Shown here in pieces: positions 1 through 55,996 of a stretch of DNA of 64,000 nt (its first letter is position 1; every line of letters starts with the position of its first letter). Location: positions 394 to 64,393 of the forward strand of contig VGWF01000001.1 in assembly GCA_016873715.1 (NCBI GenBank). Reading direction: 5' to 3'. Made by a program: the position numbers and the translations under genes. Source of the stretch: Lentisphaerota bacterium (lineage in GTDB: Bacteria; Verrucomicrobiota; Kiritimatiellia; PWTM01). The notes under the pieces are model-generated. The model was given only the letters and a program-made list of their open reading frames with translations. It made no database searches and was not told where the DNA came from.

Positions 1-332
1 CGGAGGTGCGGCGCATTACGCGCGAGGTCGCGAAGGCGCGGGGCATCCCCGTGGTCGATCTCGATCCGGTCTTCGCGGGCGAACGCGGTCCGGGCGAAGG
101 GGCGTCGTCGTACATCCGGAACCAGGCCAATTCCGGCAAGCGCGACGGCGTGCACCTGACGCCCGACGGCTACCGCGCCGTCGCGGAGGCCGTCGCGGCG
201 GCGATCCGCGCGCACAAGCTCCCCGCGACGCGCGTCGTGTGCTTCGGCGACAGCCTCACCCTCGGCGCCGGCGCGGGCCGGGGAGGAAGCTATCCGGAGA
301 GGCTCGGGGAGATTGTCGAGACGAAGCCGTGA
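1..332 (+). CDS. SGNH/GDSL-family hydrolase, 5'-truncated at the window edge. The block-V-like 'DGVHLTPDGY' precedes a block-I-like 'VVCFGDSLTLGAG', an unusual order.
   Basis: ORF 6..332 carries a GDSL-like C-terminal motif followed, in the same frame, by an N-terminal-type GDSxT motif before the stop at 330-332. Confidence 0.45.
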   Translation, partial: EVRRITREVAKARGIPVVDLDPVFAGERGPGEGASSYIRNQANSGKRDGVHLTPDGYRAVAEAVAAAIRAHKLPATRVVCFGDSLTLGAGAGRGGSYPERLGEIVETKP

Positions 333-563
333 ACAGCGAACATCGAACATCCAACATCGAACACCGAACATCGAACGGCGGACGATCAACATCCAACAAC
401 CAACAACCAACATCCAACAACCAACAGCCAACAACCAACAACCAACATCCAACAACCAACAGCCAACAACCAACCGCGAACACCGAACATCGAACAACGA
501 ACATCGAACATCGAATGGCGGACAGCCAATAGCCAACACCCAACAACCAACGGCGAACAACGG
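331..563. repeat. Heptanucleotide tandem repeat (SAACANC)n of ~33 units. Blocks of GAACATC and CAACAAC are interrupted twice by GGCGGAC.
   Basis: Read directly: 'gaacatcgaacatccaacatc...caacaaccaacaaccaacatccaacaacc...'. It lies between the stop at 332 and the GTG start at 614. Confidence 0.9.
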
Positions 564-613
564 AGTTTGGAATTGAGGGCCGGCGGCCGGACGCCTCGAA
601 GAACGAGGAGGAC

Positions 614-1285
614 GTGGGTTCGACGAATGGCGTGGCGGTGAGCGATTGGGGACCGCTGTATGTCGAGACGGTGCCCGGCCGCTTCCCGGTCGAGCCGTGG
701 GCGACGGGGTCCAACCTCGTGTTCCTCGTCGTGGCGCTCTATTGGGCGGCACGCATCCGGGGCCAGGCGCGGCGCCATGCGCTGCTCGCGTTCTCGATTC
801 CCGTGCTGCTGGTCGGCTGGGCGGCGGGCACGGTCTACCACGCGACGCGCAGTCATCCCGCCTGGCTCCTGCTCGACTGGCTGCCGATCGTGATCCTGAT
901 GGCCGCGGCGGCGCTGTGGCTGTGGCGCGACCTGCTCGGCCGCACGTCGCTCGCGTTGGCCGTGTTCCTGGTGCCGCCGCTGATCGCGGCGTACGCGGCG
1001 GCGGAGGCGGGAGTGGGGGAGGCGGCCCGGATCACGGTCTCGTACGCGGCGATCGGTCTCGCGCTGGTCGTGCCGGCGGTGCTTCACGCGGCGCTGCGGC
1101 ACCGCGCGCTGGCCGGGTGGCTGGTCGCCGCGCTGGCGGCCTTCGCGGTGGCGCTGGTCGCGCGGCAGGCCGACGCGACCGCGGGCGCCGCGGGCTGGCC
1201 GATGGGCTCGCACTTTCTGTGGCACGTCTTCGGCGGCCTGGCGACGTTCTGCGTGTTCGGCTACCTGCACGGGGTGCGGCGGTAG
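614..1285 (+). CDS. Polytopic membrane protein of the alkaline-ceramidase/CREST hydrolase family ('EPWATGSNL' and C-terminal 'HFLWHVFGG' HxxxH motif).
   Basis: 223-aa hydrophobic ORF with a GTG start; the motifs resemble the ACER-family N-terminal 'fwNTxSN' and the C-terminal His pair. Confidence 0.55.
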   Translation: MGSTNGVAVSDWGPLYVETVPGRFPVEPWATGSNLVFLVVALYWAARIRGQARRHALLAFSIPVLLVGWAAGTVYHATRSHPAWLLLDWLPIVILMAAAALWLWRDLLGRTSLALAVFLVPPLIAAYAAAEAGVGEAARITVSYAAIGLALVVPAVLHAALRHRALAGWLVAALAAFAVALVARQADATAGAAGWPMGSHFLWHVFGGLATFCVFGYLHGVRR

Positions 1286-1321
1286 CCGCCGGCGCCGCTC
1301 GTCCACCCTTCCCCCGCGCCT

Positions 1322-2641
1322 TCAGGCCGTGCCGGGGATCGGGATGACGCCCTCCGCGGGGATCGTCACGGTGCCCTTCTCGAAGTCCTCGGGGGTCGGG
1401 CTGAGCTGGAGGTTGTAGAAGGGGCTCTCCTGGTTCTCGGCCAGGTCGACCCAGCGGACGATCTGCCCGGTGTAGGCGGAGAGACGCCCCATGATCGCGG
1501 TCAGCGTCGCCTCGGCGACGCCCCGCGTCTCGCTCAGCGGCCTGCCGTTGCGGAGGCTGGCGATCAGGTCGACGTGCTCCTGCACGTACGGGTTCACGCC
1601 GCCCTTCGGCTTCACGGCGGCCTTGCCGGCGGGGTTGAGCTTGCCGCCGGGCCACACGGAGCCGGTCGCGCCGACGAGATGCTCGCCGATGCGCTGGTAG
1701 CAGCCGTTGATCTGGCGGCACATGCTGTGGACCGTCACGTCGTCGCCGTAGTCATAGTCGACGCTGAAGAAATCGTAGCGGTTGCCGATCGGGCGGCGCG
1801 CCCGGCCGCCGAACCCGAGCGCGAACTGCGGCGGACGGCCGATGAACCAGTTCGCGACGTCGAGGTTGTGGACGTGCTGCTCGATGATGTGGTCGCCGCA
1901 GAGCTCGGTGAACTGGTACCAGTTGCGGACCATGAACTGCCCCGGGGTCTCGCCGTCGACCTTCTCGTACTCCAGCCGGGCGTTGCCGCCGCACCACCAG
2001 ACGCGGCCGGACAGGATCCTCCCGATCGCGCCGTCCTCGACCGCCTTTCGGTTCTCCAGGTAGACCGGGTCGTGCCGCCGCTGCGTTCCGGCGACGACGG
2101 AGAGCTTCTTCTCCTTCGCCAGCTCGCCCGCCGCGATCAGCCGCCGGCATCCGACGGGGTCCGCCGCGGCGGCCTTCTCGACGAACACGTGCTTCCCGGC
2201 CCGGACGCAGGCCTCGAGGTGGATCGGGTGGAACGCGACGGAGGAGGTGATGATGACGATGTCCATCGGAACCGCCGCCAGCATCTTGCGGTAGCCGTCG
2301 AAGCCGATGAAGGTCGTCTCCGGAGTGACCGTCACGCGCCGCTCGCCGGGCTTGAGGTTCTTCTCCGCCCACGCGGCCAGCGTCGCGCCGAACTTCGCGG
2401 AGCGGTCGGACAGCGCGTCCGCCGCCGCGACGATCTCGACCGCCGGATCCGCCTCCAGGCAGTTGATGGCGGCCCCGCCGCCGCGGTTCCCGCAGCCGAT
2501 CACCCCGACGCGGATGCGCTCGCTGCCCGCGGCGAGCATGCGGGGCGGCGCCGCGGCGGCGAGGGCCGGGATCGATGCGACGGCGGTGGCGGATCGCCGG
2601 AGGAAGTCGCGGCGGGTCGGGGCGGACGCGTTCGGGCTCAT
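1322..2641 (-). CDS. Gfo/Idh/MocA-family NAD(P)-dependent oxidoreductase with a Tat signal (RRDFLRR).
   Basis: 439 aa with the Rossmann motif 'VGVIGCGNRG' and a twin-arginine signal. Confidence 0.9.
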   Translation of the reverse strand: MSPNASAPTRRDFLRRSATAVASIPALAAAAPPRMLAAGSERIRVGVIGCGNRGGGAAINCLEADPAVEIVAAADALSDRSAKFGATLAAWAEKNLKPGERRVTVTPETTFIGFDGYRKMLAAVPMDIVIITSSVAFHPIHLEACVRAGKHVFVEKAAAADPVGCRRLIAAGELAKEKKLSVVAGTQRRHDPVYLENRKAVEDGAIGRILSGRVWWCGGNARLEYEKVDGETPGQFMVRNWYQFTELCGDHIIEQHVHNLDVANWFIGRPPQFALGFGGRARRPIGNRYDFFSVDYDYGDDVTVHSMCRQINGCYQRIGEHLVGATGSVWPGGKLNPAGKAAVKPKGGVNPYVQEHVDLIASLRNGRPLSETRGVAEATLTAIMGRLSAYTGQIVRWVDLAENQESPFYNLQLSPTPEDFEKGTVTIPAEGVIPIPGTA

Positions 2642-3947: not shown

Positions 3948-4763
3948 ATGGCGGTCCGGACGAAGGCGGGCGGGGATGGTCGGTACGCGGTGCCTGCGGT
4001 GGACGGCATGCTGGACATCGTCGAGTTCCTCGCGGGGCAGCCGCGGCCGTGGGGGATCAACGAGCTGGCGCGGGAGCTGGGCATCACGACGAACATGGCC
4101 TTCCGCATCCTGCGGCGGCTGACGGAGCGGGGGTACGTCGAGGCGGCGGGCGAGGGGGGCTACCAGCTCGGCACCCGGTTCTTCTCGCTGGGGATGCGGC
4201 TCTACACGCGGTTCGAACTCCGGGCGCGAGCCCGGCCGCATCTCGAGCGGCTGGCGTCGTCGACCGGGGAGACGTGCCAGCTGCACGTCCTCAACGCCCG
4301 CGGCATGCTGGTGGTCGACGTGGTGAACCCGCGCGCCGACTTCTTCCTGCAGGTCGTGCCGGGCGCGCACCTCAACTGTCACGCCAATGCTTTCGGCAAG
4401 GCGGTGCTCGCGTTCCTGCCGTCCGCGGAGGCGCGGCGGTACCTGGCCGGGAAGCTCGAACGCATGACTGACCGGACGCTGATCTCCGCCGCGGCGGTGG
4501 TCCGCCAGTTCGACGCGATCCGCGCGACCGGCCTCGCCTACGACCGGGAGGAGTACGTGCGGGGCGTCCACTGCGTCGGCGCGCCGGTCTTCGACGCCTC
4601 CGGCGCGGTCGCTGCGGGCCTCGGGACCACGGGCCTGGCGATGGCCCGGGAGGGCGCGGGGGCGGAGACGTGCGAGCGGGCGGTGCTCGACTGCGCCGCC
4701 GCGGTCTCGAAGGACATCGGTTACGCTGGCGAGCGCTTCGAGGCGTGGAGGAAGCGGTCGTGA
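3948..4763 (+). CDS. IclR-family transcriptional regulator.
   Basis: An N-terminal wHTH ('INELARELGITTNMAFRILRRL') and a C-terminal IclR effector domain; ATG at 3948 follows an AT-rich segment. Confidence 0.85.
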   Translation: MAVRTKAGGDGRYAVPAVDGMLDIVEFLAGQPRPWGINELARELGITTNMAFRILRRLTERGYVEAAGEGGYQLGTRFFSLGMRLYTRFELRARARPHLERLASSTGETCQLHVLNARGMLVVDVVNPRADFFLQVVPGAHLNCHANAFGKAVLAFLPSAEARRYLAGKLERMTDRTLISAAAVVRQFDAIRATGLAYDREEYVRGVHCVGAPVFDASGAVAAGLGTTGLAMAREGAGAETCERAVLDCAAAVSKDIGYAGERFEAWRKRS

Positions 4764-7700
4764 ACTCCGCCATTCCCGCCTTCGCCGCGTGCGCAGCGGC
4801 CGTCCTTGCGGCAGCCGCGCCGCCGTCCCGTCCGCATCCGATCGTCGCGTGGCTGCCGCCGGAGTCGCTGCCGTCCGAGCCGGCGACGCGGGCGCTGACA
4901 CCCGACGAAGCTGCGGCGGCCTTGGAGCGCGACTGGCTGTTCCAGTGCGACGGGCGTCCTTCGCGGGGCGCCGTGGAGGCGGAGATCCGGCGCGCACGGC
5001 GCATCGCCACGGCCCTGGCCGACGGCCCCGCGCGGTCCGTTGCATCGTCCGCCCTGGAACGGCTGGCGGCGATCGAGGCCTCCCTGAAGGATCCGGCCGT
5101 CCCGCGGTGCGTACCCCCGCGGCCCGACGGCATCGCCGGACGGTGGTCGTTCGAGGGCACGGACGACGAGGTGTCGGCGTTCAGGCCCCTGGGATCCTGG
5201 GTCTTCGTCGACGGCGTGTTCGCAAACGGAGTGGCGCTCGGCGGCGGCGCCTACGCCGACGCCGGGGCGCAGGCCCATGGCGTCTTCGCAGGGTCCTACT
5301 CGGTGACCGCGTGGATCCGGACCTCGTCGGACGAGGCCGATGTGATCGGGACCGGGGTGGGGCGGGACCACGTCCTGCTGATGGCCTTCCGCGGCGTGGT
5401 GCGGGGCCATCACTGGACGGCCGGCGGTGCGAACGTGATCGACGGAAAGACCCCGTTGGCCGACGGCGCATGGCACCACATCGCGCAGGTCGTCGACGGC
5501 ACGACGATCCGGCTCTACGTCGACGGGAAGCCGGACGGCGAGCAGCCCTTCAAGGGCCGCGCCGCCGTGCCGCCCGCGCCGCTGCTGATCGGCGCGCGGT
5601 CCATGGATCCCGCGTCGCTCCGGTCGAGATTCCAGGGCGAGATGGACGAGATCCTGCTGCTCGGCCGGGCGCTGGGCGCCGACGAGATCGCCGGCCCCCA
5701 CGCCGCCGGGCGCGCCGCGCTGGAGGCATCGGCCGGGGCCTCGCGCGAGCCCTACCTGGCGGTGCGGCGCATCAAGCGCGACCTCATGGTCCGCGACCCC
5801 GCGGTCGACTTCAGCCGCGTCGTCTTCATCGACCAGCCGTATCCGCAGGGCGCGGAATGGGCGCACGAGGCGCGGCACCGCAACGGCACGATGGCCGTGC
5901 CCGGCGGGCGGCTGCTGACGCTCGAAGGCCTGCACCCGGGCGGCACGGTGCGCAAGCTCGCGCCGGCGGACGGCCCCGCCGCGTTCTGGCGGCCGGACGT
6001 GTCGTTCGACGGCCGCCGCGTGCTCTTCTGCATGAAGCCGGCGGCGGAGAAGGCCTTCCACCTGTACGAAATCGGCGCGGACGGAAAGGGGGTCCGCCGG
6101 ATCACGGACGGCGACTACGACGATCTCGACCCGATCTACCTTCCGGACGGGCGCCTCCTGTTCTCGACCTCGCGCGCGAACACCTACGTCCGCTGCATGC
6201 CCTACACGTACGCGTACGTGCTGGCGCGCTGCGACGCGGACGGCAGGAACCTCTACGTCGTCAGCCCCGGCAACGAGCCCGACTGGCTGCCGTCGCTGTT
6301 GAACGACGGACGCGTGATCTTCACGCGGTGGGAGTACACCGACAAGGCGCTGTGGCGGATCCAGAGCCTCTGGACGATGAACCCCGACGGATCCAGCCTC
6401 TCGGCCTTCTGGGGCAACCAGAGCGTCTGGCCCGACATGCTCGTCGAGCCGCGCGCGATCCCCGGGAGCCGCCGCGTGATGTTCAGCGGCTGCGGCCACC
6501 ACGACTGGTTCGGCGGTCCGATCGGCATCGTCGACCCCGCCCAGGGCTTCAACTTCCCCGACGGGCTGACGAAGGTCACGGCCGACGTGCCGTGGGCCGA
6601 GTGCGGGCCTCCGCCGGTCGACCCGGTCGAGAGCGCCGCCTACGAACCCGCCGGCCGGTTCGGCGCGTACAAGACGCCGTATCCGCTCTCCGACCGTCTC
6701 TTCCTCGTCTCGGCGCGCACCGGCGGGCTGAACACGCCGCGGGACAAGCAGCCGGGGAGCTTCAAGCTCTACCTGATGGACGTCGACGGCAACCGCGAGC
6801 TGATCCACGAGGGCGCGTTCAACATCCTCCACGCGATGCCGCTGCGCCCGAGGCCGGCCCCGCCGGTGATCGCCGACCGCGTCGAATGGCCCGGGACCGG
6901 GCCGGACCGCAAGCCCGCCGCGCCGGGCGTGCTCTTCTCGGGGGATGTCATCCAGGGACCGACGCGGATTCCGCGCGGCGAGGCGAAGTGGCTGCGCGTG
7001 GTCGCGATGGACGCGAAGACCTACTCGTCGTGGATCCGCGAGGAGATGCCGCACCAGCACTCGGGTCCGGCGGTTTCGCTGCTGCAGGCCGACGGCGTGA
7101 AGCGGATCGTCAGCGAGGTTCCGGTGGAGGCCGACGGTTCGGTGAACTTCGAGGCGCCCCCGGGCGTGGCGCTGCATTTCCAGCTTCTCGACGGCGGGCG
7201 TCGCGCGATCCAGACGATGCGCTCCTTCGTCGGCGTCATGCCCGGCGAGCGGCGCGGCTGCGTCGGCTGCCACGAGATGCACAGCGTCGCCCAGGTGAAC
7301 GCGCGCGGCGCGGCCCTGGAGCGCGCCCCGTCCGCGATGACGCCGCCGCCGTGGGGCGCGGACACGACGCTGGGCTACGAGCGGTCGATCCACCCGATCC
7401 TGGAGAGGCACTGCGGCGCCTGCCACCAGGGGGACGGCAAGGGGCGGAAGGCCTTCGACGTCACGCTGCGGCCGGGGCTCGGCATCTTCAAGGAGCCCTA
7501 CGTCACGCTCGTCGGCGGGTCGCTGTACCACGGTCCGAAGTCGCTCGAACCGCCCGCGACGATCGCTGGATGCCTGCCGGTCGAAACGTGGCCCACCGCC
7601 GGCGCGCCGGAGGGCGTGCGGACGTTTCCGCCGATGACGTGGATGTCGCGCACGAGCCGCCTCGTGAACCACTACGCCTCCGGGGCGCATCACGCCGAGG

Positions 7701-7930
7701 TGCGGATGCCGGAGGCCGAGCGCCGCGTGCTGGCCGCCTGGGTCGACCTCACCGCGCCCTACCGGGGCGACGAGGAGATCCGCGCGCTGCCCGATCCCGA
7801 CTTCCCCGGCATCGGGGACCTCCCCGTCCGCCCGCGCGTGCGCACCGCGCCGGTGATCGACCGCTTCAACCTGCCCCAGGACGGCGTGGCCAGGGCGATG
7901 TCCGCATCCGCCGGAAAGGCGACGCCATGA
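4760..7930 (+). CDS. Secreted multidomain protein, paralog 1. It has a signal peptide, a LamG/ConA-like domain, a PD40/TolB-like beta-propeller and two CxxCH motifs ('GCVGCHE', 'RHCGACHQGDGKGRKAFDVT', PSCyt1-like).
   Basis: ORF 4670..7930. The GTG at 4760 overlaps the IclR stop (GTGA), and a signal peptide follows it. Conserved blocks are shared with the genes at 7927 and 45528. Confidence 0.85.
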   Translation: MNSAIPAFAACAAAVLAAAAPPSRPHPIVAWLPPESLPSEPATRALTPDEAAAALERDWLFQCDGRPSRGAVEAEIRRARRIATALADGPARSVASSALERLAAIEASLKDPAVPRCVPPRPDGIAGRWSFEGTDDEVSAFRPLGSWVFVDGVFANGVALGGGAYADAGAQAHGVFAGSYSVTAWIRTSSDEADVIGTGVGRDHVLLMAFRGVVRGHHWTAGGANVIDGKTPLADGAWHHIAQVVDGTTIRLYVDGKPDGEQPFKGRAAVPPAPLLIGARSMDPASLRSRFQGEMDEILLLGRALGADEIAGPHAAGRAALEASAGASREPYLAVRRIKRDLMVRDPAVDFSRVVFIDQPYPQGAEWAHEARHRNGTMAVPGGRLLTLEGLHPGGTVRKLAPADGPAAFWRPDVSFDGRRVLFCMKPAAEKAFHLYEIGADGKGVRRITDGDYDDLDPIYLPDGRLLFSTSRANTYVRCMPYTYAYVLARCDADGRNLYVVSPGNEPDWLPSLLNDGRVIFTRWEYTDKALWRIQSLWTMNPDGSSLSAFWGNQSVWPDMLVEPRAIPGSRRVMFSGCGHHDWFGGPIGIVDPAQGFNFPDGLTKVTADVPWAECGPPPVDPVESAAYEPAGRFGAYKTPYPLSDRLFLVSARTGGLNTPRDKQPGSFKLYLMDVDGNRELIHEGAFNILHAMPLRPRPAPPVIADRVEWPGTGPDRKPAAPGVLFSGDVIQGPTRIPRGEAKWLRVVAMDAKTYSSWIREEMPHQHSGPAVSLLQADGVKRIVSEVPVEADGSVNFEAPPGVALHFQLLDGGRRAIQTMRSFVGVMPGERRGCVGCHEMHSVAQVNARGAALERAPSAMTPPPWGADTTLGYERSIHPILERHCGACHQGDGKGRKAFDVTLRPGLGIFKEPYVTLVGGSLYHGPKSLEPPATIAGCLPVETWPTAGAPEGVRTFPPMTWMSRTSRLVNHYASGAHHAEVRMPEAERRVLAAWVDLTAPYRGDEEIRALPDPDFPGIGDLPVRPRVRTAPVIDRFNLPQDGVARAMSASAGKATP

Positions 7931-45527: not shown

Positions 45528-48425
45528 ATGACGCGGGCCGTGCTTCTCTTTTTGCTGTCGGCGGTCGCGGCGCGGGCCGGGGAGCCGTACCGTCCGCTGG
45601 CCTGGCGCGGGGATGCCGAGTGGTACGGGTCGGCGTTCTGGACGGGGCCGGACTGGACGCGGGTCGGGAAGGACTGGCACCACCCGGGGAACGACACGCC
45701 GAGCGTCCGCAGGTTCGAATGCCCGCGCGACGGGCGCGTGGCCGTCACCGGTCGCGTGGCGAAGCTCCATCTCAGCGGCGACGGCATCCGCGCGACGATC
45801 CGGCACAACGGGCGCGATGCGTGGACCGCGGAGATCGGCGGGACCGACGGCACGGGCGTCGTCCACCGCGTCGAGTTCGACGTGAAGGCCGGCGACGCGA
45901 TCCGTTTCGTCGTCCACAAACGCGGCCACATCGGCTGCGATACGACCGGTTGGGATCCTGTGGTTGTGTATGCGGACGGCGCGGCGTTCCGCGCGTCGGA
46001 GGCGTTTGCGGCCGCGAAGCAGGGCGGGGGAGGGTGGTCCTACGAGCAGGAGGGCGAGGGGACCGCGCCGCCCGCGGTGCCGGCTGCGGCCGCTCCGGAG
46101 CGTCCGTCCGCGCCGCCGTCCCCGGCGCTGTCCGCCCTCCTGGCCGCGCGGGCCGGCGAACTCGCGCCGGAGACCGATTCCGCGCTGCTCGCCATGGCGA
46201 TGGAGGAATGGTGGCGGGAGGACGGGCTCGACGACACGCCCGCGACGTACCGGGCCGCGGCAAGCAACCACCTGGAGCGGGTGCGCGCGCTCGCCTCGTG
46301 CGCCGGCGCGCCGCCGGCGGACGCGGACCGCCTTGTCGGAGCCGGGCCGCAGTCGCTCGACGACTGGCGTCTCCACTACCTCCGCGTCCGCGCCCTGAAG
46401 CGCTCGCTGATGATGGGCCGTCCCGAGATGCGGTTCGGCGAACTACTCGTGTGCAAGCGCCGCATGCCGTCCTACGCACACCTCGTCGCCCAGTACTACG
46501 GCTGGCGGCAGCGGGCGGGCGGGGGCCTCTACGCCGTGGCGCGGCCGGGACAGTCACTCGCGCTGCGCGACCTCACGGGCGGGCGCCTGCCGCCGGGCAG
46601 CTGCCTCGAGCCGCGCGTGCATCCGGACGGACGCCGCGTCCTGTTCGCCTTCGTCGCGTGCGACCTGACCACGCCCGAGCCGACCTCGCTGCCGGTGAAC
46701 GAGGCCGGGCCGGATGAGCGCTACTTCCACCTGTACGAGATCGCCGCGGACGGCACGGGCCTGCGCCAGCTCACGCGCGGGCCCTACGACGACATGATGG
46801 CCGACTACCTGCCCGACGGCGGCCTCGTCTTCTGTTCGACGCGCCGGAAGGGCTACTCGCGCTGCTTCGGGCCGCAGTACAGTCCGCGGTGGGACACCTA
46901 CACGCTGCACCGCGCCGACGGCGACGGCGGCGGCATCCGCACGCTTTCATGGAACGACGTCAGCGAGTGGTTCCCCGCGGTGGGGCACGGCGGCGAGATC
47001 CTCTTCGCGCGGTGGGACTACATCGACCGCGACGCGGTGACGCACCAGAACCTGTGGTCGTGCCGGCCCGACGGCACCAACCCGATGGCGGTCTGGGGCA
47101 ACGGCCTTCCGAAGCCGCACTGCACGTTCCAGGCGCGTCCGGTGCCCGGCTCGCACAGGCTCGTCTTCACCGCGTCGGCGCACCACTCGATCACGGCGGG
47201 GCCCGTGTGCCTGCTCGACCCGACGGTCGGCCTCAACGCGCCCGAGGCGGTCGAGCGCGTGACGCCGCTGCCGTATCCGGAGGCCGAGGGCTGGGCGCTG
47301 CCCGAGTGGTACGAGTCGCCGTGGCCGCTCTCGGAGGACTGGTTCCTCGCCGCCTACAGCCCGAAGCGGCTGCGGTCCGAGGGGCAGCACAAGAGCGACC
47401 CGAACCCGGATGACGCGCTGCGGATCGTCCTGCTCGACCGCCGCGGCAACCGCGAACTCGTGTACCGCGACCGCGGGATCGGGACCACGACGCCGGTTCC
47501 GCTCGCCCCTCGTCGCCCGCCCCCCGTGGTCGCCAGCGTCCTGCCTGCCGATCCGCCGCCGCACGGCGAGCTGACGATCTACGACGTCTACCGCGGCCTC
47601 GACGGCGTGCCGCGCGGGTCGATCGCGGAGATCCGGATCGTGCAGCTCTTCCCCAAGACCACGCCGGTCGCCAACGTGCCGCGCATGGGCCTGGCGGGCG
47701 AGGAGAACGGCCGCGCGATCCTCGGCACCGTGCCGGTCGAGGCGGACGGCTCCGCGCGGTTCCTGCTGCCCGCGCGCACGAAGGTGCTGTTCCAGGCGGT
47801 CGACCGCGACGGCTTCGTGCGGCGCACGATGCGCTCGTCGACCTACGTCCAGCCCGGCGAGGTCACCTCGTGCGTCGGCTGCCACGAGTACGGGACCACG
47901 CTGCCCTCGGCCGCCGGCGGCGCGCCCATGGCGATGCGCCGCGCGCCCTCGACGATCGAGCCCGGACTGCTGGGCGGGCGTCCGTTCGGCTTCGTCGAGG
48001 TCGTGCAGCCCGTCCTCGACCGCCATTGCATCCGCTGCCACGCCGGGGAGAAGCCGAAGGGCGGGATCGATCTCACGCGGGCGCCGGACCGCGGGTTCAC
48101 GCGGTCCTACTGGGCGTTGTGCGGCGACGCGGCGGGGCGTCCGACGCGCCCCGAGGCCGACGCGGGCGACCTCGTGCCGCGCTACCGGCAGCGCAACCAG
48201 ATCCAGATCACGCCGCCGGACGACCTGCGCGCCGCGCGGCAGAGCCGGCTGATCCGCATGCTGGCGGCCGCGTCCGGCCACCAGGGGGTGAAGGTGCCGC
48301 CGGACGACCTCCGCCGCCTCGCCGCCTGGATCGACCTCAACGCGATCTTCTACGGCGTCTACGACGCGCCCTCGCAGGCCCGCCAGGTCGCCGGCGACCC
48401 CGTCCCGATGCCGGACATCCGCTGA
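45528..48425 (+). CDS. Secreted multidomain protein, paralog 3. It has an N-terminal beta-sandwich-like domain, a linker, a PD40 beta-propeller and two CxxCH motifs ('SCVGCHE', 'RHCIRCHAGEKPKGGIDLT').
   Basis: An RBS 'ggcggagg' precedes the ATG at 45528. Conserved blocks are shared with the genes at 4760 and 7927. Confidence 0.85.
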   Translation: MTRAVLLFLLSAVAARAGEPYRPLAWRGDAEWYGSAFWTGPDWTRVGKDWHHPGNDTPSVRRFECPRDGRVAVTGRVAKLHLSGDGIRATIRHNGRDAWTAEIGGTDGTGVVHRVEFDVKAGDAIRFVVHKRGHIGCDTTGWDPVVVYADGAAFRASEAFAAAKQGGGGWSYEQEGEGTAPPAVPAAAAPERPSAPPSPALSALLAARAGELAPETDSALLAMAMEEWWREDGLDDTPATYRAAASNHLERVRALASCAGAPPADADRLVGAGPQSLDDWRLHYLRVRALKRSLMMGRPEMRFGELLVCKRRMPSYAHLVAQYYGWRQRAGGGLYAVARPGQSLALRDLTGGRLPPGSCLEPRVHPDGRRVLFAFVACDLTTPEPTSLPVNEAGPDERYFHLYEIAADGTGLRQLTRGPYDDMMADYLPDGGLVFCSTRRKGYSRCFGPQYSPRWDTYTLHRADGDGGGIRTLSWNDVSEWFPAVGHGGEILFARWDYIDRDAVTHQNLWSCRPDGTNPMAVWGNGLPKPHCTFQARPVPGSHRLVFTASAHHSITAGPVCLLDPTVGLNAPEAVERVTPLPYPEAEGWALPEWYESPWPLSEDWFLAAYSPKRLRSEGQHKSDPNPDDALRIVLLDRRGNRELVYRDRGIGTTTPVPLAPRRPPPVVASVLPADPPPHGELTIYDVYRGLDGVPRGSIAEIRIVQLFPKTTPVANVPRMGLAGEENGRAILGTVPVEADGSARFLLPARTKVLFQAVDRDGFVRRTMRSSTYVQPGEVTSCVGCHEYGTTLPSAAGGAPMAMRRAPSTIEPGLLGGRPFGFVEVVQPVLDRHCIRCHAGEKPKGGIDLTRAPDRGFTRSYWALCGDAAGRPTRPEADAGDLVPRYRQRNQIQITPPDDLRAARQSRLIRMLAAASGHQGVKVPPDDLRRLAAWIDLNAIFYGVYDAPSQARQVAGDPVPMPDIR

Positions 48426-55846: not shown

Positions 55847-55920
55847 GAAGCGATGGGGCGGCGCTCCGACTTGAAACTTGAAACTTGGAACCTGAACCTT
55901 GAGACTCCGCCTCCGCGCGG

Positions 55921-55996
55921 GCCAGCTTAGCTCAGCCGGTAGAGCAGCTGATTTGTAATCAGCAGGTCGTCGGTTCGATCCCGACAGCTGGCTCCA
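55921..55996 (+). tRNA. tRNA-Thr (anticodon UGU), 76 nt with encoded CCA.
   Basis: Manual cloverleaf: acceptor GCCAGCT/AGCTGGC, D-arm GCTC-AGCCGGTA-GAGC, anticodon arm GCTGA-TTTGTAA-TCAGC, T-arm GTCGG-TTCGATC-CCGAC. Confidence 0.85.

Follow-up and report, generated by a model that had tools for sequence, protein, structure and literature searches.

Heptamers are described as the most abundant class of long SSRs in many bacteria, possibly generated by polymerase slippage (Mrazek 2007, as summarized in PMC4679880 and PMC4692102). The heptanucleotide SSRs of free-living bacteria include the class of Mrazek 2007, the cyanobacterial STRRs, the GGGAATC repeats of Xanthomonas and the TAACTGA repeats of Beggiatoaceae and cyanobacteria. 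In the same sources (PMC4679880, PMC4692102), they appear as tandem 7-nt arrays that lie between genes, are often imperfect, occur as several arrays with different units per genome and are not conserved in length or sequence between relatives; their function is given as unknown, and polymerase slippage is proposed as their origin. According to a literature summary, long SSRs with 5–11-nt units are typical of non-pathogens and those with 1–4-nt units are typical of host-adapted bacteria.

Heptad arrays with an assigned role are organized differently. The hmw1A and hmw2A genes of H. influenzae carry an (ATCTTTC)n tract in the 5'-UTR, in which at least 11 homogeneous units base-pair with a right arm rich in G, and RNase III cleaves the resulting hairpin (PMC12721329). 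The omega (ParB) arrays of pSM19035 consist of gap-free 7-bp units, four or more of them contiguous, in which direct and inverted heptads are mixed in sets of 7–10 units beside the genes of the system (PMC9499535). Higher-order-repeat satellites, such as the eukaryotic alpha satellite, provide a structural analogy only, in that units are arranged in multi-unit blocks and the blocks are duplicated, which is a signature of unequal exchange. The rut sites lie in untranslated RNA of more than 80 nt with much C, little G and little structure, and they are not periodic repeats.

The array analyzed here lies near the start of a 64,000-nt stretch of DNA (the window). It resembles the known heptanucleotide SSRs in its tandem 7-nt units, its intergenic position, its imperfection and its lack of conservation between relatives. 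Two arrays with different units lie within the 64 kb analyzed. It differs from them in its host (~71% GC and apparently a PVC-like glycan degrader, not a cyanobacterium or proteobacterium), in its length of 33 units and in its nested 35-bp and ~140-bp higher-order copies. The tract lacks the G-richness needed for quadruplexes, and, unlike most TAACTGA sets, it is not placed directly against a start codon. No description of its SAACANC unit was found in the searchable literature. Like the hmw tracts, the array is a heptamer repeat 5' of an envelope-protein gene, whose expression could in principle be modulated by repeat number; unlike them, it has heterogeneous units, no complementary arm, RNA that is predicted to be open and an environmental rather than host-adapted host. 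It shares gap-free contiguous heptads with the pSM19035 arrays but comprises 33 direct units, lies in what looks like a chromosomal region and has no partner gene in its vicinity. It is C-rich, G-poor, predicted to be unstructured and located after a stop codon, as rut sites are, but it is periodic and belongs to a motif class without sense-strand preference. Its hierarchy recalls that of alpha satellite but on a scale of 7, 35 and 140 bp in a 230-bp bacterial tract with no centromere role. On balance, we consider it probable that the tract is a passive, non-coding, imperfect heptanucleotide long SSR of the cyanobacterial-STRR kind, which grows by slippage or unequal exchange, is probably co-transcribed and is not a programmed switch.

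Anatomy of the array and its flanking genes

The array and its surroundings consist of the following features.

3–332, plus strand: 3' half of an SGNH/GDSL hydrolase gene, circularly permuted and intact, with block V (DGVH) ahead of block I (VVCFGDSLTLG) at the C terminus and a natural TGA stop at 330–332
331–561, plus strand: heptanucleotide array of 33 SAACANC units in register, A/C-rich on the plus strand
331–372, plus strand: G-type block 1, six mostly G-type units (GAACAGC GAACATC GAACATC CAACATC GAACACC GAACATC)
373–386, plus strand: junction 1, degenerate units GAACGGC GGACGAT, which include GGCGGAC
387–477, plus strand: C-type block of 13 CAACAWC/CAACAGC units, in which 393–474 is exactly 35-bp periodic
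478–512, plus strand: G-type block 2, five units, which copy block 1 (81% identity, shift of ~140 bp)
513–526, plus strand: junction 2, GAATGGC GGACAGC, which include GGCGGAC
527–561, plus strand: short C-type block of four units and a last unit GAACAAC (CAATAGC CAACACC CAACAAC CAACGGC GAACAAC)
562–613, plus strand: GC-rich unique spacer with a Shine-Dalgarno sequence, GAGGAGG, at 605–611
614–1285, plus strand: gene for a ceramidase-like multi-pass membrane protein of 223 residues with a GTG start

When positions 331–561 are cut into 7-mers, 33 units are obtained without a single indel, all of them direct and head-to-tail. Unit position 3 is A in all 33 units and position 7 is C in 32; A at position 2 and C at position 4 are each found in 31 of the 33 units and A at position 5 is found in 28, whereas position 1 is divided between C (18 units) and G (15 units) and position 6 is free. 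TRF reports the tract at 339–551 with period 7 and 30.4 copies, and its score of 144 is the highest in the window. With up to one mismatch, SAACANCSAACANC has 29 matches in the window, of which 27 fall inside the tract; shuffled sequences give an expectation of 0.46. Compared with itself, the tract is 0.65–0.81 identical at all shifts divisible by 7, and the average over the remaining shifts is 0.29. The heptanucleotide tandem repeat proposed in the earlier note is thus real, and so is its A/C-rich character in GC-rich surroundings (GC content of 50.2%, with A103 C85 G32 T13, versus 71.3% for the window). The proposed block order is also essentially right, the tract does begin at the upstream stop codon (the TGA overlaps the first unit), and the GTG at 614 stands 50 nt past position 563, as the note had stated. 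A second heptamer array with a different unit, (ACTTGAA)5.4, is located at 55869–55906.

Two levels of higher-order structure are superimposed on the 7-nt period. The 82 nt at 393–474 are perfectly 35-bp periodic, with an exact 47-nt repeat at an offset of 35 and the 35-bp unit present 2.3 times, and mark a recent five-unit duplication. The best long-range shift within the tract is 140 bp, at 81% identity. Identical units seldom adjoin, and the longest run of them is two.

The 281-bp spacer between the hydrolase and ceramidase-like genes, both on the plus strand, is mostly filled by the tract. The upstream gene had been read as a GDSL-hydrolase remnant; HMMER and alignment instead identify an intact circularly permuted SGNH hydrolase, for whose family the C-terminal GDS block is normal. 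The idea that the array truncated a second SGNH gene was rejected, as the ORF ends where its homologues end in an exhaustive HMMER search and alignment. A word-index search of proteins with the upstream fragment as query gave no matches, but this negative carries no weight, as homologues at 57–62% identity were missed as well. The nearest genes encode the SGNH hydrolase, the ceramidase-like protein and a GFO/IDH/MocA oxidoreductase, and the window is rich in sulfatase and BNR genes. From this gene context, the host looks like a free-living glycan or polysaccharide degrader, and it is probably a PVC-type environmental bacterium with ~71% GC.

The array is confined to this locus among the relatives that were compared. 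Neither an array nor synteny was found at relatives of the ceramidase-like gene (83, 57, 56 and 50% identity) or of the hydrolase gene (62 and 57% identity), so the tract shares the non-conservation of length and sequence between relatives. Orthologous arrays in two metagenome contigs, L089 and L129, differ in content.

Repeat number, RNA structure and the downstream gene

The earlier note placed the tract among slipped-strand contingency loci. Its slippage-type character holds, as the 35-bp duplication and the ~140-bp block copy are whole-heptad growth steps; its status as a contingency locus is not supported, given that no run of identical units exceeds two. A contingency locus, phase- or rheostat-variable, in which slipped-strand gain or loss of units tunes expression of the ceramidase-like gene in the manner of the hmw1A 5'-UTR (ATCTTTC)n, is in our estimate unlikely. 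The heptamer repeat does stand directly 5' of a membrane-protein gene, a heptamer precedent exists (PMC12721329) and the 82 nt of exact 35-bp periodicity are a good slippage substrate. The behavior of other assemblies can also be read in this direction. The ceramidase-like protein is identical in five other assemblies, and these five independent short-read assemblies all end inside the tract, at 483–505, which is 37–59 nt short of the point at which a 31-mer is first repeated in the window's version. Breaks that come earlier than the tract's own repeated k-mers explain would fit a mixture of variant copies, although this is suggestive only, and they could mean real hypervariability. Nevertheless, positions 483–563 (the 3' 80 nt, ~11 units), which are the sole independently supported part of the tract, are identical in all five. 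A 22-mer of the 3' flank, compared exactly, matched no metagenome contig.

The remaining evidence speaks against such a locus. The homogeneous run that defines a contingency substrate is missing, and the complementary arm and long hairpin required by the hmw mechanism have no counterpart, as positions 1–1400 contain no inverted repeats and the tract is mostly unpaired in predicted folds. A scan of 1–1400, limited to promoters of the sigma-70 type and to terminators, found none, so the effect on promoter spacing suggested earlier has no recognizable element to act on. The genes concerned are those of a glycan degrader and a ceramidase-like protein, not a surface or restriction gene of a host-adapted pathogen, and in the literature summary the 7-nt unit length falls in the 5–11-nt range of non-pathogens. 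Nothing shows that the tract acts as a genetic switch.

As RNA, the tract would be exceptional. No other 200-nt stretch of the window is predicted to fold as weakly (−21.7 kcal/mol versus a mean of −92.6 and a standard deviation of 12.6 kcal/mol), and its C/G ratio reaches 11.7 over 78 nt, compared with at most 2.8 elsewhere. Predicted pairing probabilities of 0.37 (whole tract) and 0.21 (C-type block) contrast with 0.72–0.74 in the flanking coding sequence. The modeled transcript would have the rut-type property of a C-rich, G-poor, unstructured and untranslated RNA of ~80 nt or more. Rfam 15 gave no match in 1–1400 even at E ≤ 1, and the only Rfam match in the whole window is a tRNA at 55921.

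These properties suit an RNA role, and the extreme position of the tract in both folding weakness and C/G ratio counts against a passive reading. The untranslated 230 nt might be a selected element, either an attenuator at which Rho loads, as at a rut site, or an open standby leader through which the ratio of ceramidase-like to hydrolase output is set; such an element would be consistent with the YC dinucleotides at 7-nt intervals, with the coincidence of the C-rich strand and the sense strand of both neighboring genes and with the lack of an intrinsic terminator between them. We nonetheless hold a selected RNA element to be improbable. Relatives carry no array at the equivalent position, and transcription of the tract and Rho in this organism enter the argument as assumptions. 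Moreover, the array may have its present orientation by chance. In a set of 63 SAACANC arrays from contigs with a GC content of at least 0.55, the flanking genes are +24/−20 on the left and +19/−27 on the right, and 11 arrays with both genes on the plus strand face 11 with both on the minus strand, the gene strands being assigned by a home-made local GC-frame heuristic that was checked on this window only. This missing strand bias argues against a general RNA function of the motif class.

Heptad arrays in other DNA

At least 119 contigs from metagenomes contain arrays of (SAACANC)5 or longer, and in many of these contigs, as in the window, CAACATC units stand together with GAACATC units; the arrays were retrieved with a SAACANC search pattern at a threshold of five units, so the motif is selected by the pattern itself. 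The 7-nt period is also seen at loci picked by protein homology only, where five of six arrays with at least four copies have period 7. At motif-picked loci from which the seed motif was removed, period 7 (n=43) is followed by periods 14 (n=14), 6 (n=13) and 8 (n=9). A fixed module of 5–6 units was ruled out for the metagenome arrays, whose lengths just decay from the five-unit search threshold. The GGCGGAC junction might have marked a shared family, as strings resembling it lie close to arrays in contigs L116, L056 and L059. However, the string in L059 reads as coding (…EWAERLG…), and the resemblance is treated as chance.

Some of these arrays form arrangements that are absent from the window. 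In the metagenomes, SAACATC arrays form long terminator-like hairpins, in which (SAACATC)n is followed by a loop, (GATGTTS)n and a T run. An inverted (GATGTTS)n partner lies at most 200 nt downstream in 15 of 129 arrays, mostly 18–41 nt away and then followed by the T run, and upstream in one of 129. Other arrays are inserted in frame in PriA-, PurM-, Sua5- and RsmB-like genes. The two heptamer families of the window, SAACATC and GAACCTT/CTTGAAA, occur together on unrelated contigs (L119, L089/L129 and L069), and in L165 a similar order is found, with SAACATC units followed by GAACGGC ... CAATAG. No (GATGTTS)n partner was detected within 200 nt on either side of the window's arrays, so the tract does not have the heptad-stem hairpin arrangement.

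This material raises the possibility of a dispersed, cross-lineage family of SAAC-NNN heptad arrays that spreads by copying (template switching, gene conversion or a dedicated activity), builds terminator-like hairpins and in-frame inserts elsewhere and is represented here by direct-only copies that later expanded. The abundance of the arrays, their mixed unit types, the excess of downstream over upstream inverted partners, the housekeeping-gene insertions and the resemblance to L165 favor it. The joint recurrence of the two families on unrelated contigs is not predicted by independent slippage from chance seeds; it counts against a passive reading and in favor of such a family. We still give the dispersed family a low probability: the search pattern predetermines the motif, no module size is fixed, the window has neither an inverted partner nor a further copy of the motif, shared ancestry is inseparable from spread in metagenome contigs without taxonomy, and no candidate enzyme was identified.

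A DNA-level role is very unlikely. By analogy with the ribbon-helix-helix dimers of omega/ParB on pSM19035, a small DNA-binding protein might bind the heptads cooperatively, as an operator or a centromere-like site, and the gap-free contiguous heptads far exceed the four needed there (PMC9499535). At five of its seven positions the unit hardly varies, and the missing gene-strand bias also fits a DNA-level role. However, amplification of a few unit variants suffices for the conserved positions, all 33 units share one orientation, and the neighboring hydrolase, membrane-protein and oxidoreductase genes include no partner gene. In addition, the second array has another unit and genomes carry many heptamers, which one protein cannot explain.

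It is equally hard to credit that the tract is an assembly artefact, with copy number or block order misbuilt from short reads, or a translated low-complexity segment with a 7-residue period. In favor of these readings, only 483–563 is independently confirmed, every independent assembly breaks in the tract, exact look-ups of three tract-spanning ORFs returned no record, and all three plus-strand frames are nearly stop-free across the tract. However, five samples contain the right third of the tract in exactly the same form, and the 81% identity of the blocks is too low for a simple collapse or loop, which leaves only the 35-bp copy number open to assembly error. Translation, and with it the 21-nt-periodic peptide that had been suggested, is excluded. 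The upstream frame is closed by the stop at 330–332 and the frame of the downstream gene by a TAG at 530–532, after which that gene has no earlier in-frame start; it has a start codon and a Shine-Dalgarno sequence of its own, no start preceded by a Shine-Dalgarno sequence serves the tract, and the single Pfam match to the tract translations is below threshold and of a compositional type.

Growth of the array and its significance

The reading that we prefer, a passive long SSR, accommodates the nested anatomy as a series of growth steps. The tract would have arisen, and would still change, in whole-heptad steps by replication slippage or unequal sister-strand exchange. A block of ~20 units (G-type units, a GGCGGAC junction and C-type units) would have been duplicated earlier and a five-unit (35-bp) segment recently, and point substitutions would afterwards have blurred the units. 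Because no promoter or terminator is recognizable nearby, RNA polymerase most likely reads through from the hydrolase gene into the tract, and the transcript is predicted to form an intercistronic stretch that is rich in C, poor in G and almost free of structure. Whatever influence the tract might have on the downstream gene, whether as a spacer, as an open leader or through possible loading of Rho, would then be a by-product of presumably neutral sequence rather than a selected function.

The tract alone is ordinary. It adds a long, well-structured case to a known class of heptanucleotide repeats, from an environmental bacterium that is GC-rich and probably of PVC type, and its nested 7/35/140-bp structure records how an array grows. 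It also carries a practical warning, as such arrays break short-read assemblies and invite over-reading as switches. The abundance of the bacterial heptamer class has been unexplained since 2007. If a SAAC-NNN family exists, its in-frame copies would be tolerated even in essential genes such as PriA, PurM and Sua5. It would then point to an activity dedicated to generating the arrays or to a factor that reads heptads, and would provide a handle on the bacterial preference for 7-nt repeats. The hairpin arrays, the in-frame arrays in housekeeping genes and the co-occurrence of the two families offer material with which heptamer arrays that are mutational by-products may be told from those that are spread and used.

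Architecture of the heptad tract

The window region 331–561 divides into 33 successive 7-mers with zero indels and the consensus SAACANC (S, C or G). Unit position 3 is A in 33/33 units and position 7 is C in 32/33. Positions 2, 4 and 5 are also conserved (A in 31/33, C in 31/33 and A in 28/33, respectively), position 1 is C in 18 units and G in 15, and position 6 can be any base. The best Tandem Repeats Finder result in the window, well ahead of every other, is a period-7 array at 339–551 (30.4 copies, score 144). A two-unit pattern with at most one mismatch has 29 matches, 27 of which lie inside the tract, versus 0.46 expected from shuffles. Self-identity is 0.65–0.81 at all multiple-of-7 shifts and averages 0.29 at the remaining shifts. 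The tract contains 103 A, 85 C, 32 G and 13 T (50% GC) in a window of 71.3% GC. The tandem heptamer tract reported in the earlier note is thus real and beyond chance, and the block order given there is essentially correct; it is specified below by a unit list, in which G-type and C-type denote the first base of the unit.

Organization of the tract (5′ to 3′) and the downstream gene
Tract start: six units, mostly G-type
Junction 1: GAACGGC-GGACGAT, after the first six units
C-type block: thirteen units, after GAACGGC-GGACGAT
Second G-type block: five units, after the thirteen C-type units
Junction 2: GAATGGC-GGACAGC, after the second G-type block
Tract end: four C-type units, then the last unit GAACAAC
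614–1285, + strand: ceramidase-like membrane protein, 223 aa, weak Ceramidase match

Two nested copies can be added to this order. Positions 393–474 are perfectly 35-bp periodic, with an exact 47-nt repeat at offset 35 in the self-comparison, which indicates a recent duplication of five heptads. The top long-range self-match, at a 140-bp shift with 81% identity, points to an older duplication of the whole block of G-type units, junction and C-type units. A reasonably probable reading of the tract is that of a passive long heptanucleotide repeat, which slippage or unequal exchange would have built and reshaped in whole-heptad steps.

Flanking genes and comparison at the locus

The upstream ORF extends past the window start, and its TGA stop (330–332) overlaps the first heptad. 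Its last ∼35 residues (VVCFGDSLTLG…SYPERL) resemble an N-terminal block I and follow a normal C-terminal block V. Such an arrangement would suit the description of the gene as a GDSL-hydrolase remnant in the earlier note. When the upstream fragment was compared exhaustively by HMMER with 1.84 billion representatives, 280 matches (representative clusters at E ≤ 1e-3) were obtained. The best homologues are 215–250 aa long, and the whole fragment aligns to their residues ∼124–229. In an alignment of homologues P0030–P0039, the blocks follow the order II, III, V, I, with the GDS catalytic motif at the C-terminus, and the proteins stop 8–15 residues past SYPxxL, as does the window ORF. The Pfam Lipase_GDSL_2 match of full-length homologues begins only at profile position ∼32, at their N-termini. 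The shared block order and shared end after SYPxxL identify the upstream gene as an intact, circularly permuted SGNH/GDSL hydrolase with the array beginning at its natural stop codon, and the remnant description does not hold. Truncation of the gene by the array was ruled out because the ORF ends where its permuted-family homologues end. A tRNA-Ala(CGC) called by ARAGORN within the SGNH coding sequence (157–236, − strand) lacks an Rfam match at E ≤ 1 and is probably a false positive.

The downstream ceramidase-like ORF is preceded by GAGGAGG (605–611). Its frame is open back to 533, where it is closed by a single TAG (530–532) in the unit CAATAGC, one C-to-T change from CAACAGC; past this codon, the frame is open again as far as 239. 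Between the TAG and the start at 614, no other in-frame start is found. Translations of the tract gave a sole Pfam match, which is below threshold and compositional-looking. The tract is not translated, since the upstream frame stops at 330–332 and the downstream frame is closed at 530–532; the periodic peptide envisaged earlier is thereby discarded.

In genome collections, the proteins closest to the ceramidase-like protein come from unclassified, Victivallales, Planctomycetaceae and Phycisphaerae MAGs (≤50% identity). Elsewhere in the window are genes for several sulfatases, BNR-repeat proteins, Laminin_G_3 and HZS_alpha-middle-domain proteins, a GFO/IDH/MocA oxidoreductase and a xylose-isomerase-like TIM barrel, and this predicted gene profile is that of a free-living, PVC-type polysaccharide degrader. 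A 'hydrazine synthase alpha middle domain' (PF18582) occurs in two large proteins (4670–7930 and 45528–48425), in one case alongside Laminin_G_3; the surroundings are rich in sulfatase and BNR genes.

Five Logan contigs (L001–L005), one per sequencing run, encode the exact ceramidase-like protein. All five end within the tract (483–505) and are identical over the spacer and the final (3′) 80 nt of the tract. The sole repeated 30-/31-mers of the window's version lie at 393–445, so a k=31 graph of the window sequence should reach leftward to ∼446. The five assemblies stop 37–59 nt short of the first repeated 31-mer, which suggests, as a hint only, that left of ∼483 these samples are heterogeneous or unlike the window. 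Exact look-ups of three tract-spanning ORFs, and of a 22-mer from the 3′ flank in metagenome contigs, found no contig that spans the whole tract. Both the array and the gene order are missing from relatives of the gene downstream (83, 57, 56 and 50% identity) and of the gene upstream (62 and 57% identity), which makes the array young or unstable at the genus scale.

The earlier note had proposed a contingency locus in which unit number acts as a switch. The breakage of five assemblies inside the tract is consistent with this proposal, but the long homogeneous run that defines such loci is absent, as at most two adjacent units are identical. Moreover, hmw1A of H. influenzae, the only well-studied heptamer example, needs a complementary arm (PMC12721329), whereas no inverted partner of the window tract was found. 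A switch is unlikely; a slippage-type origin, to which the nested whole-heptad duplications point, is retained.

RNA properties and related arrays

No sigma-70-like promoter was detected in window 1–1400 by a scan limited to the sigma-70 type, which leaves the suggested effect on promoter spacing without such a promoter to act on. The one terminator-like match in 1–1400 (1190–1211) is within the downstream gene and at chance level, and Rfam gives no hit to the tract at a cut-off of E ≤ 1. With no detectable promoter or terminator, the tract would be co-transcribed with the hydrolase gene.

Rho loading sites and open standby leaders are C-rich, G-poor and weakly structured RNAs, and the predicted plus-strand RNA of the tract resembles them in composition and openness. 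Its C/G ratio of 11.7 in 78 nt is by far the window maximum (runner-up, 2.8), and it forms the least structured 200 nt in the window (predicted −21.7 versus a mean of −92.6 kcal/mol, sd 12.6). In a 900-nt fold, the predicted pairing probability is 0.37 for the tract, 0.21 for the C-type block and 0.72–0.74 for flanking coding sequence. A selected Rho or leader element, modeled on these properties, is nonetheless as doubtful as the switch. A metagenome scan with (SAACANC)5 recovered 119 or more contigs. Where contig GC was ≥ 0.55 (63 arrays), flanking-gene strands were assigned by local GC frame, a method that had been validated on the window. These 63 arrays show no sense-strand bias (left, +24/−20; right, +19/−27; co-directional, 11 ++ versus 11 −−), nor do arrays of at least 10 units by reading of the strand table. 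A selected RNA role is thus unlikely for the motif class, and the sense orientation of the window tract may be chance.

Many metagenome arrays combine CAACATC and GAACATC units, like the window. For 15/129 arrays, an inverted (GATGTTS)n array lies within 200 nt downstream, mostly at a distance of 18–41 nt and with a T run behind it; an upstream partner is present for only 1/129. The heptad-periodic stems are 35–40 bp, with folds of approximately −44 to −82 kcal/mol when well formed and only −30 kcal/mol at L070. The typical layout is (SAACATC)5–7, a 10–30-nt loop often closed by CAATG/CATTG, (GATGTTS)4–5 and a T run (loci L116, L128, L074, L123, L102, L106, L122, L097, L044, L077, L068, L066, L127 and L162), and the A/C arm comes first, with L069 as one apparent exception. 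These predicted hairpins match no Rfam family and look like intrinsic terminators made of heptamers.

Some fetched arrays are in frame within conserved genes. In a PriA-like gene (L089 300–560; orthologue L129 1–165, minus strand), the array forms a ∼85-aa insert between the 3′BD and helicase domains, and the orthologues, 82% identical, are unlike in array content. Other in-frame arrays occur in PurM-like (L071 2689–2723) and Sua5-like (L098 1387–1421) genes, which share the insert NIQHPTSNIQHP, and in RsmB-like (L038 3932–3966) and CheW-like (L119 1355–1396) genes. On a viral contig (L165 3801–3835, minus strand), (SAACATC)5 and GAACGGC are followed by CAACAGC CAAGAGC CAATAG immediately before ATG, a unit-type order that matches window 499–533.

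The window contains a second heptamer array, (ACTTGAA)5.4 (55869–55906), which decays into GGAACCT/GAACCTT and is located ∼20 nt past a sulfatase gene stop and 15 nt before tRNA-Thr(TGT) (55921–55996). GAACTTT/GAACCTT/CTTGAAA arrays adjoin SAACATC arrays on L089, L069 and L119. The joint recurrence of the window's two heptamer families on L119, L089/L129 and L069 is contrary to independent slippage from chance seeds and makes membership of a dispersed, copied family of heptad arrays worth considering. This membership is slightly less probable still than the switch or the RNA element: the SAACANC motif was itself the search key of the metagenome collection, and an apparent 5–6-unit 'module' was rejected as a decaying length distribution cut off at the search threshold. 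A protein-binding heptad array, by analogy with omega/ParB of pSM19035 (PMC9499535), and an artefact or coding segment are both highly improbable.

The heptamer-repeat class in bacteria

The passive repeat would be tolerated in its spacer position between two intact genes, and any effect on expression would be a by-product. Period 7 is also dominant beyond this locus. Among loci fetched by ceramidase-like homology only (309 kb, many phyla), period 7 accounts for 5/6 non-redundant arrays of at least 4 copies, and motif-fetched loci, with the seed motif removed, contain 43 period-7 and 14 period-14 arrays versus 13 period-6 and 9 period-8 arrays. Homology-fetched units include GAAAGGT (×13.7), GTTGGTG (×12), GTTCAAG (×8.4) and TACCTAA (×6.7), and L019 contains five period-7 arrays in a 10-kb span. 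Tandem repeats on L019, L026, L030, L006 and L007 (Cytophagales, Bacteroidales and other contigs) are mainly period-7 with unrelated units.

This dominance agrees with published work in which heptamers outnumber all other long simple-sequence repeats in many bacteria, with a replicative polymerase footprint that favors 7-nt slippage as the proposed cause (Mrazek 2007, as cited in PMC4679880 and PMC4692102). Described cases include cyanobacterial STRRs, Xanthomonas GGGAATC repeats and the TAACTGA repeats of Beggiatoaceae, cyanobacteria and Bacteroidetes, all of speculative function and variable in length among close relatives. No description of bacterial CAACATC/GAACATC arrays was found in the searchable literature. 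The tract is a further case of this known, still unexplained class of bacterial heptamer repeats.
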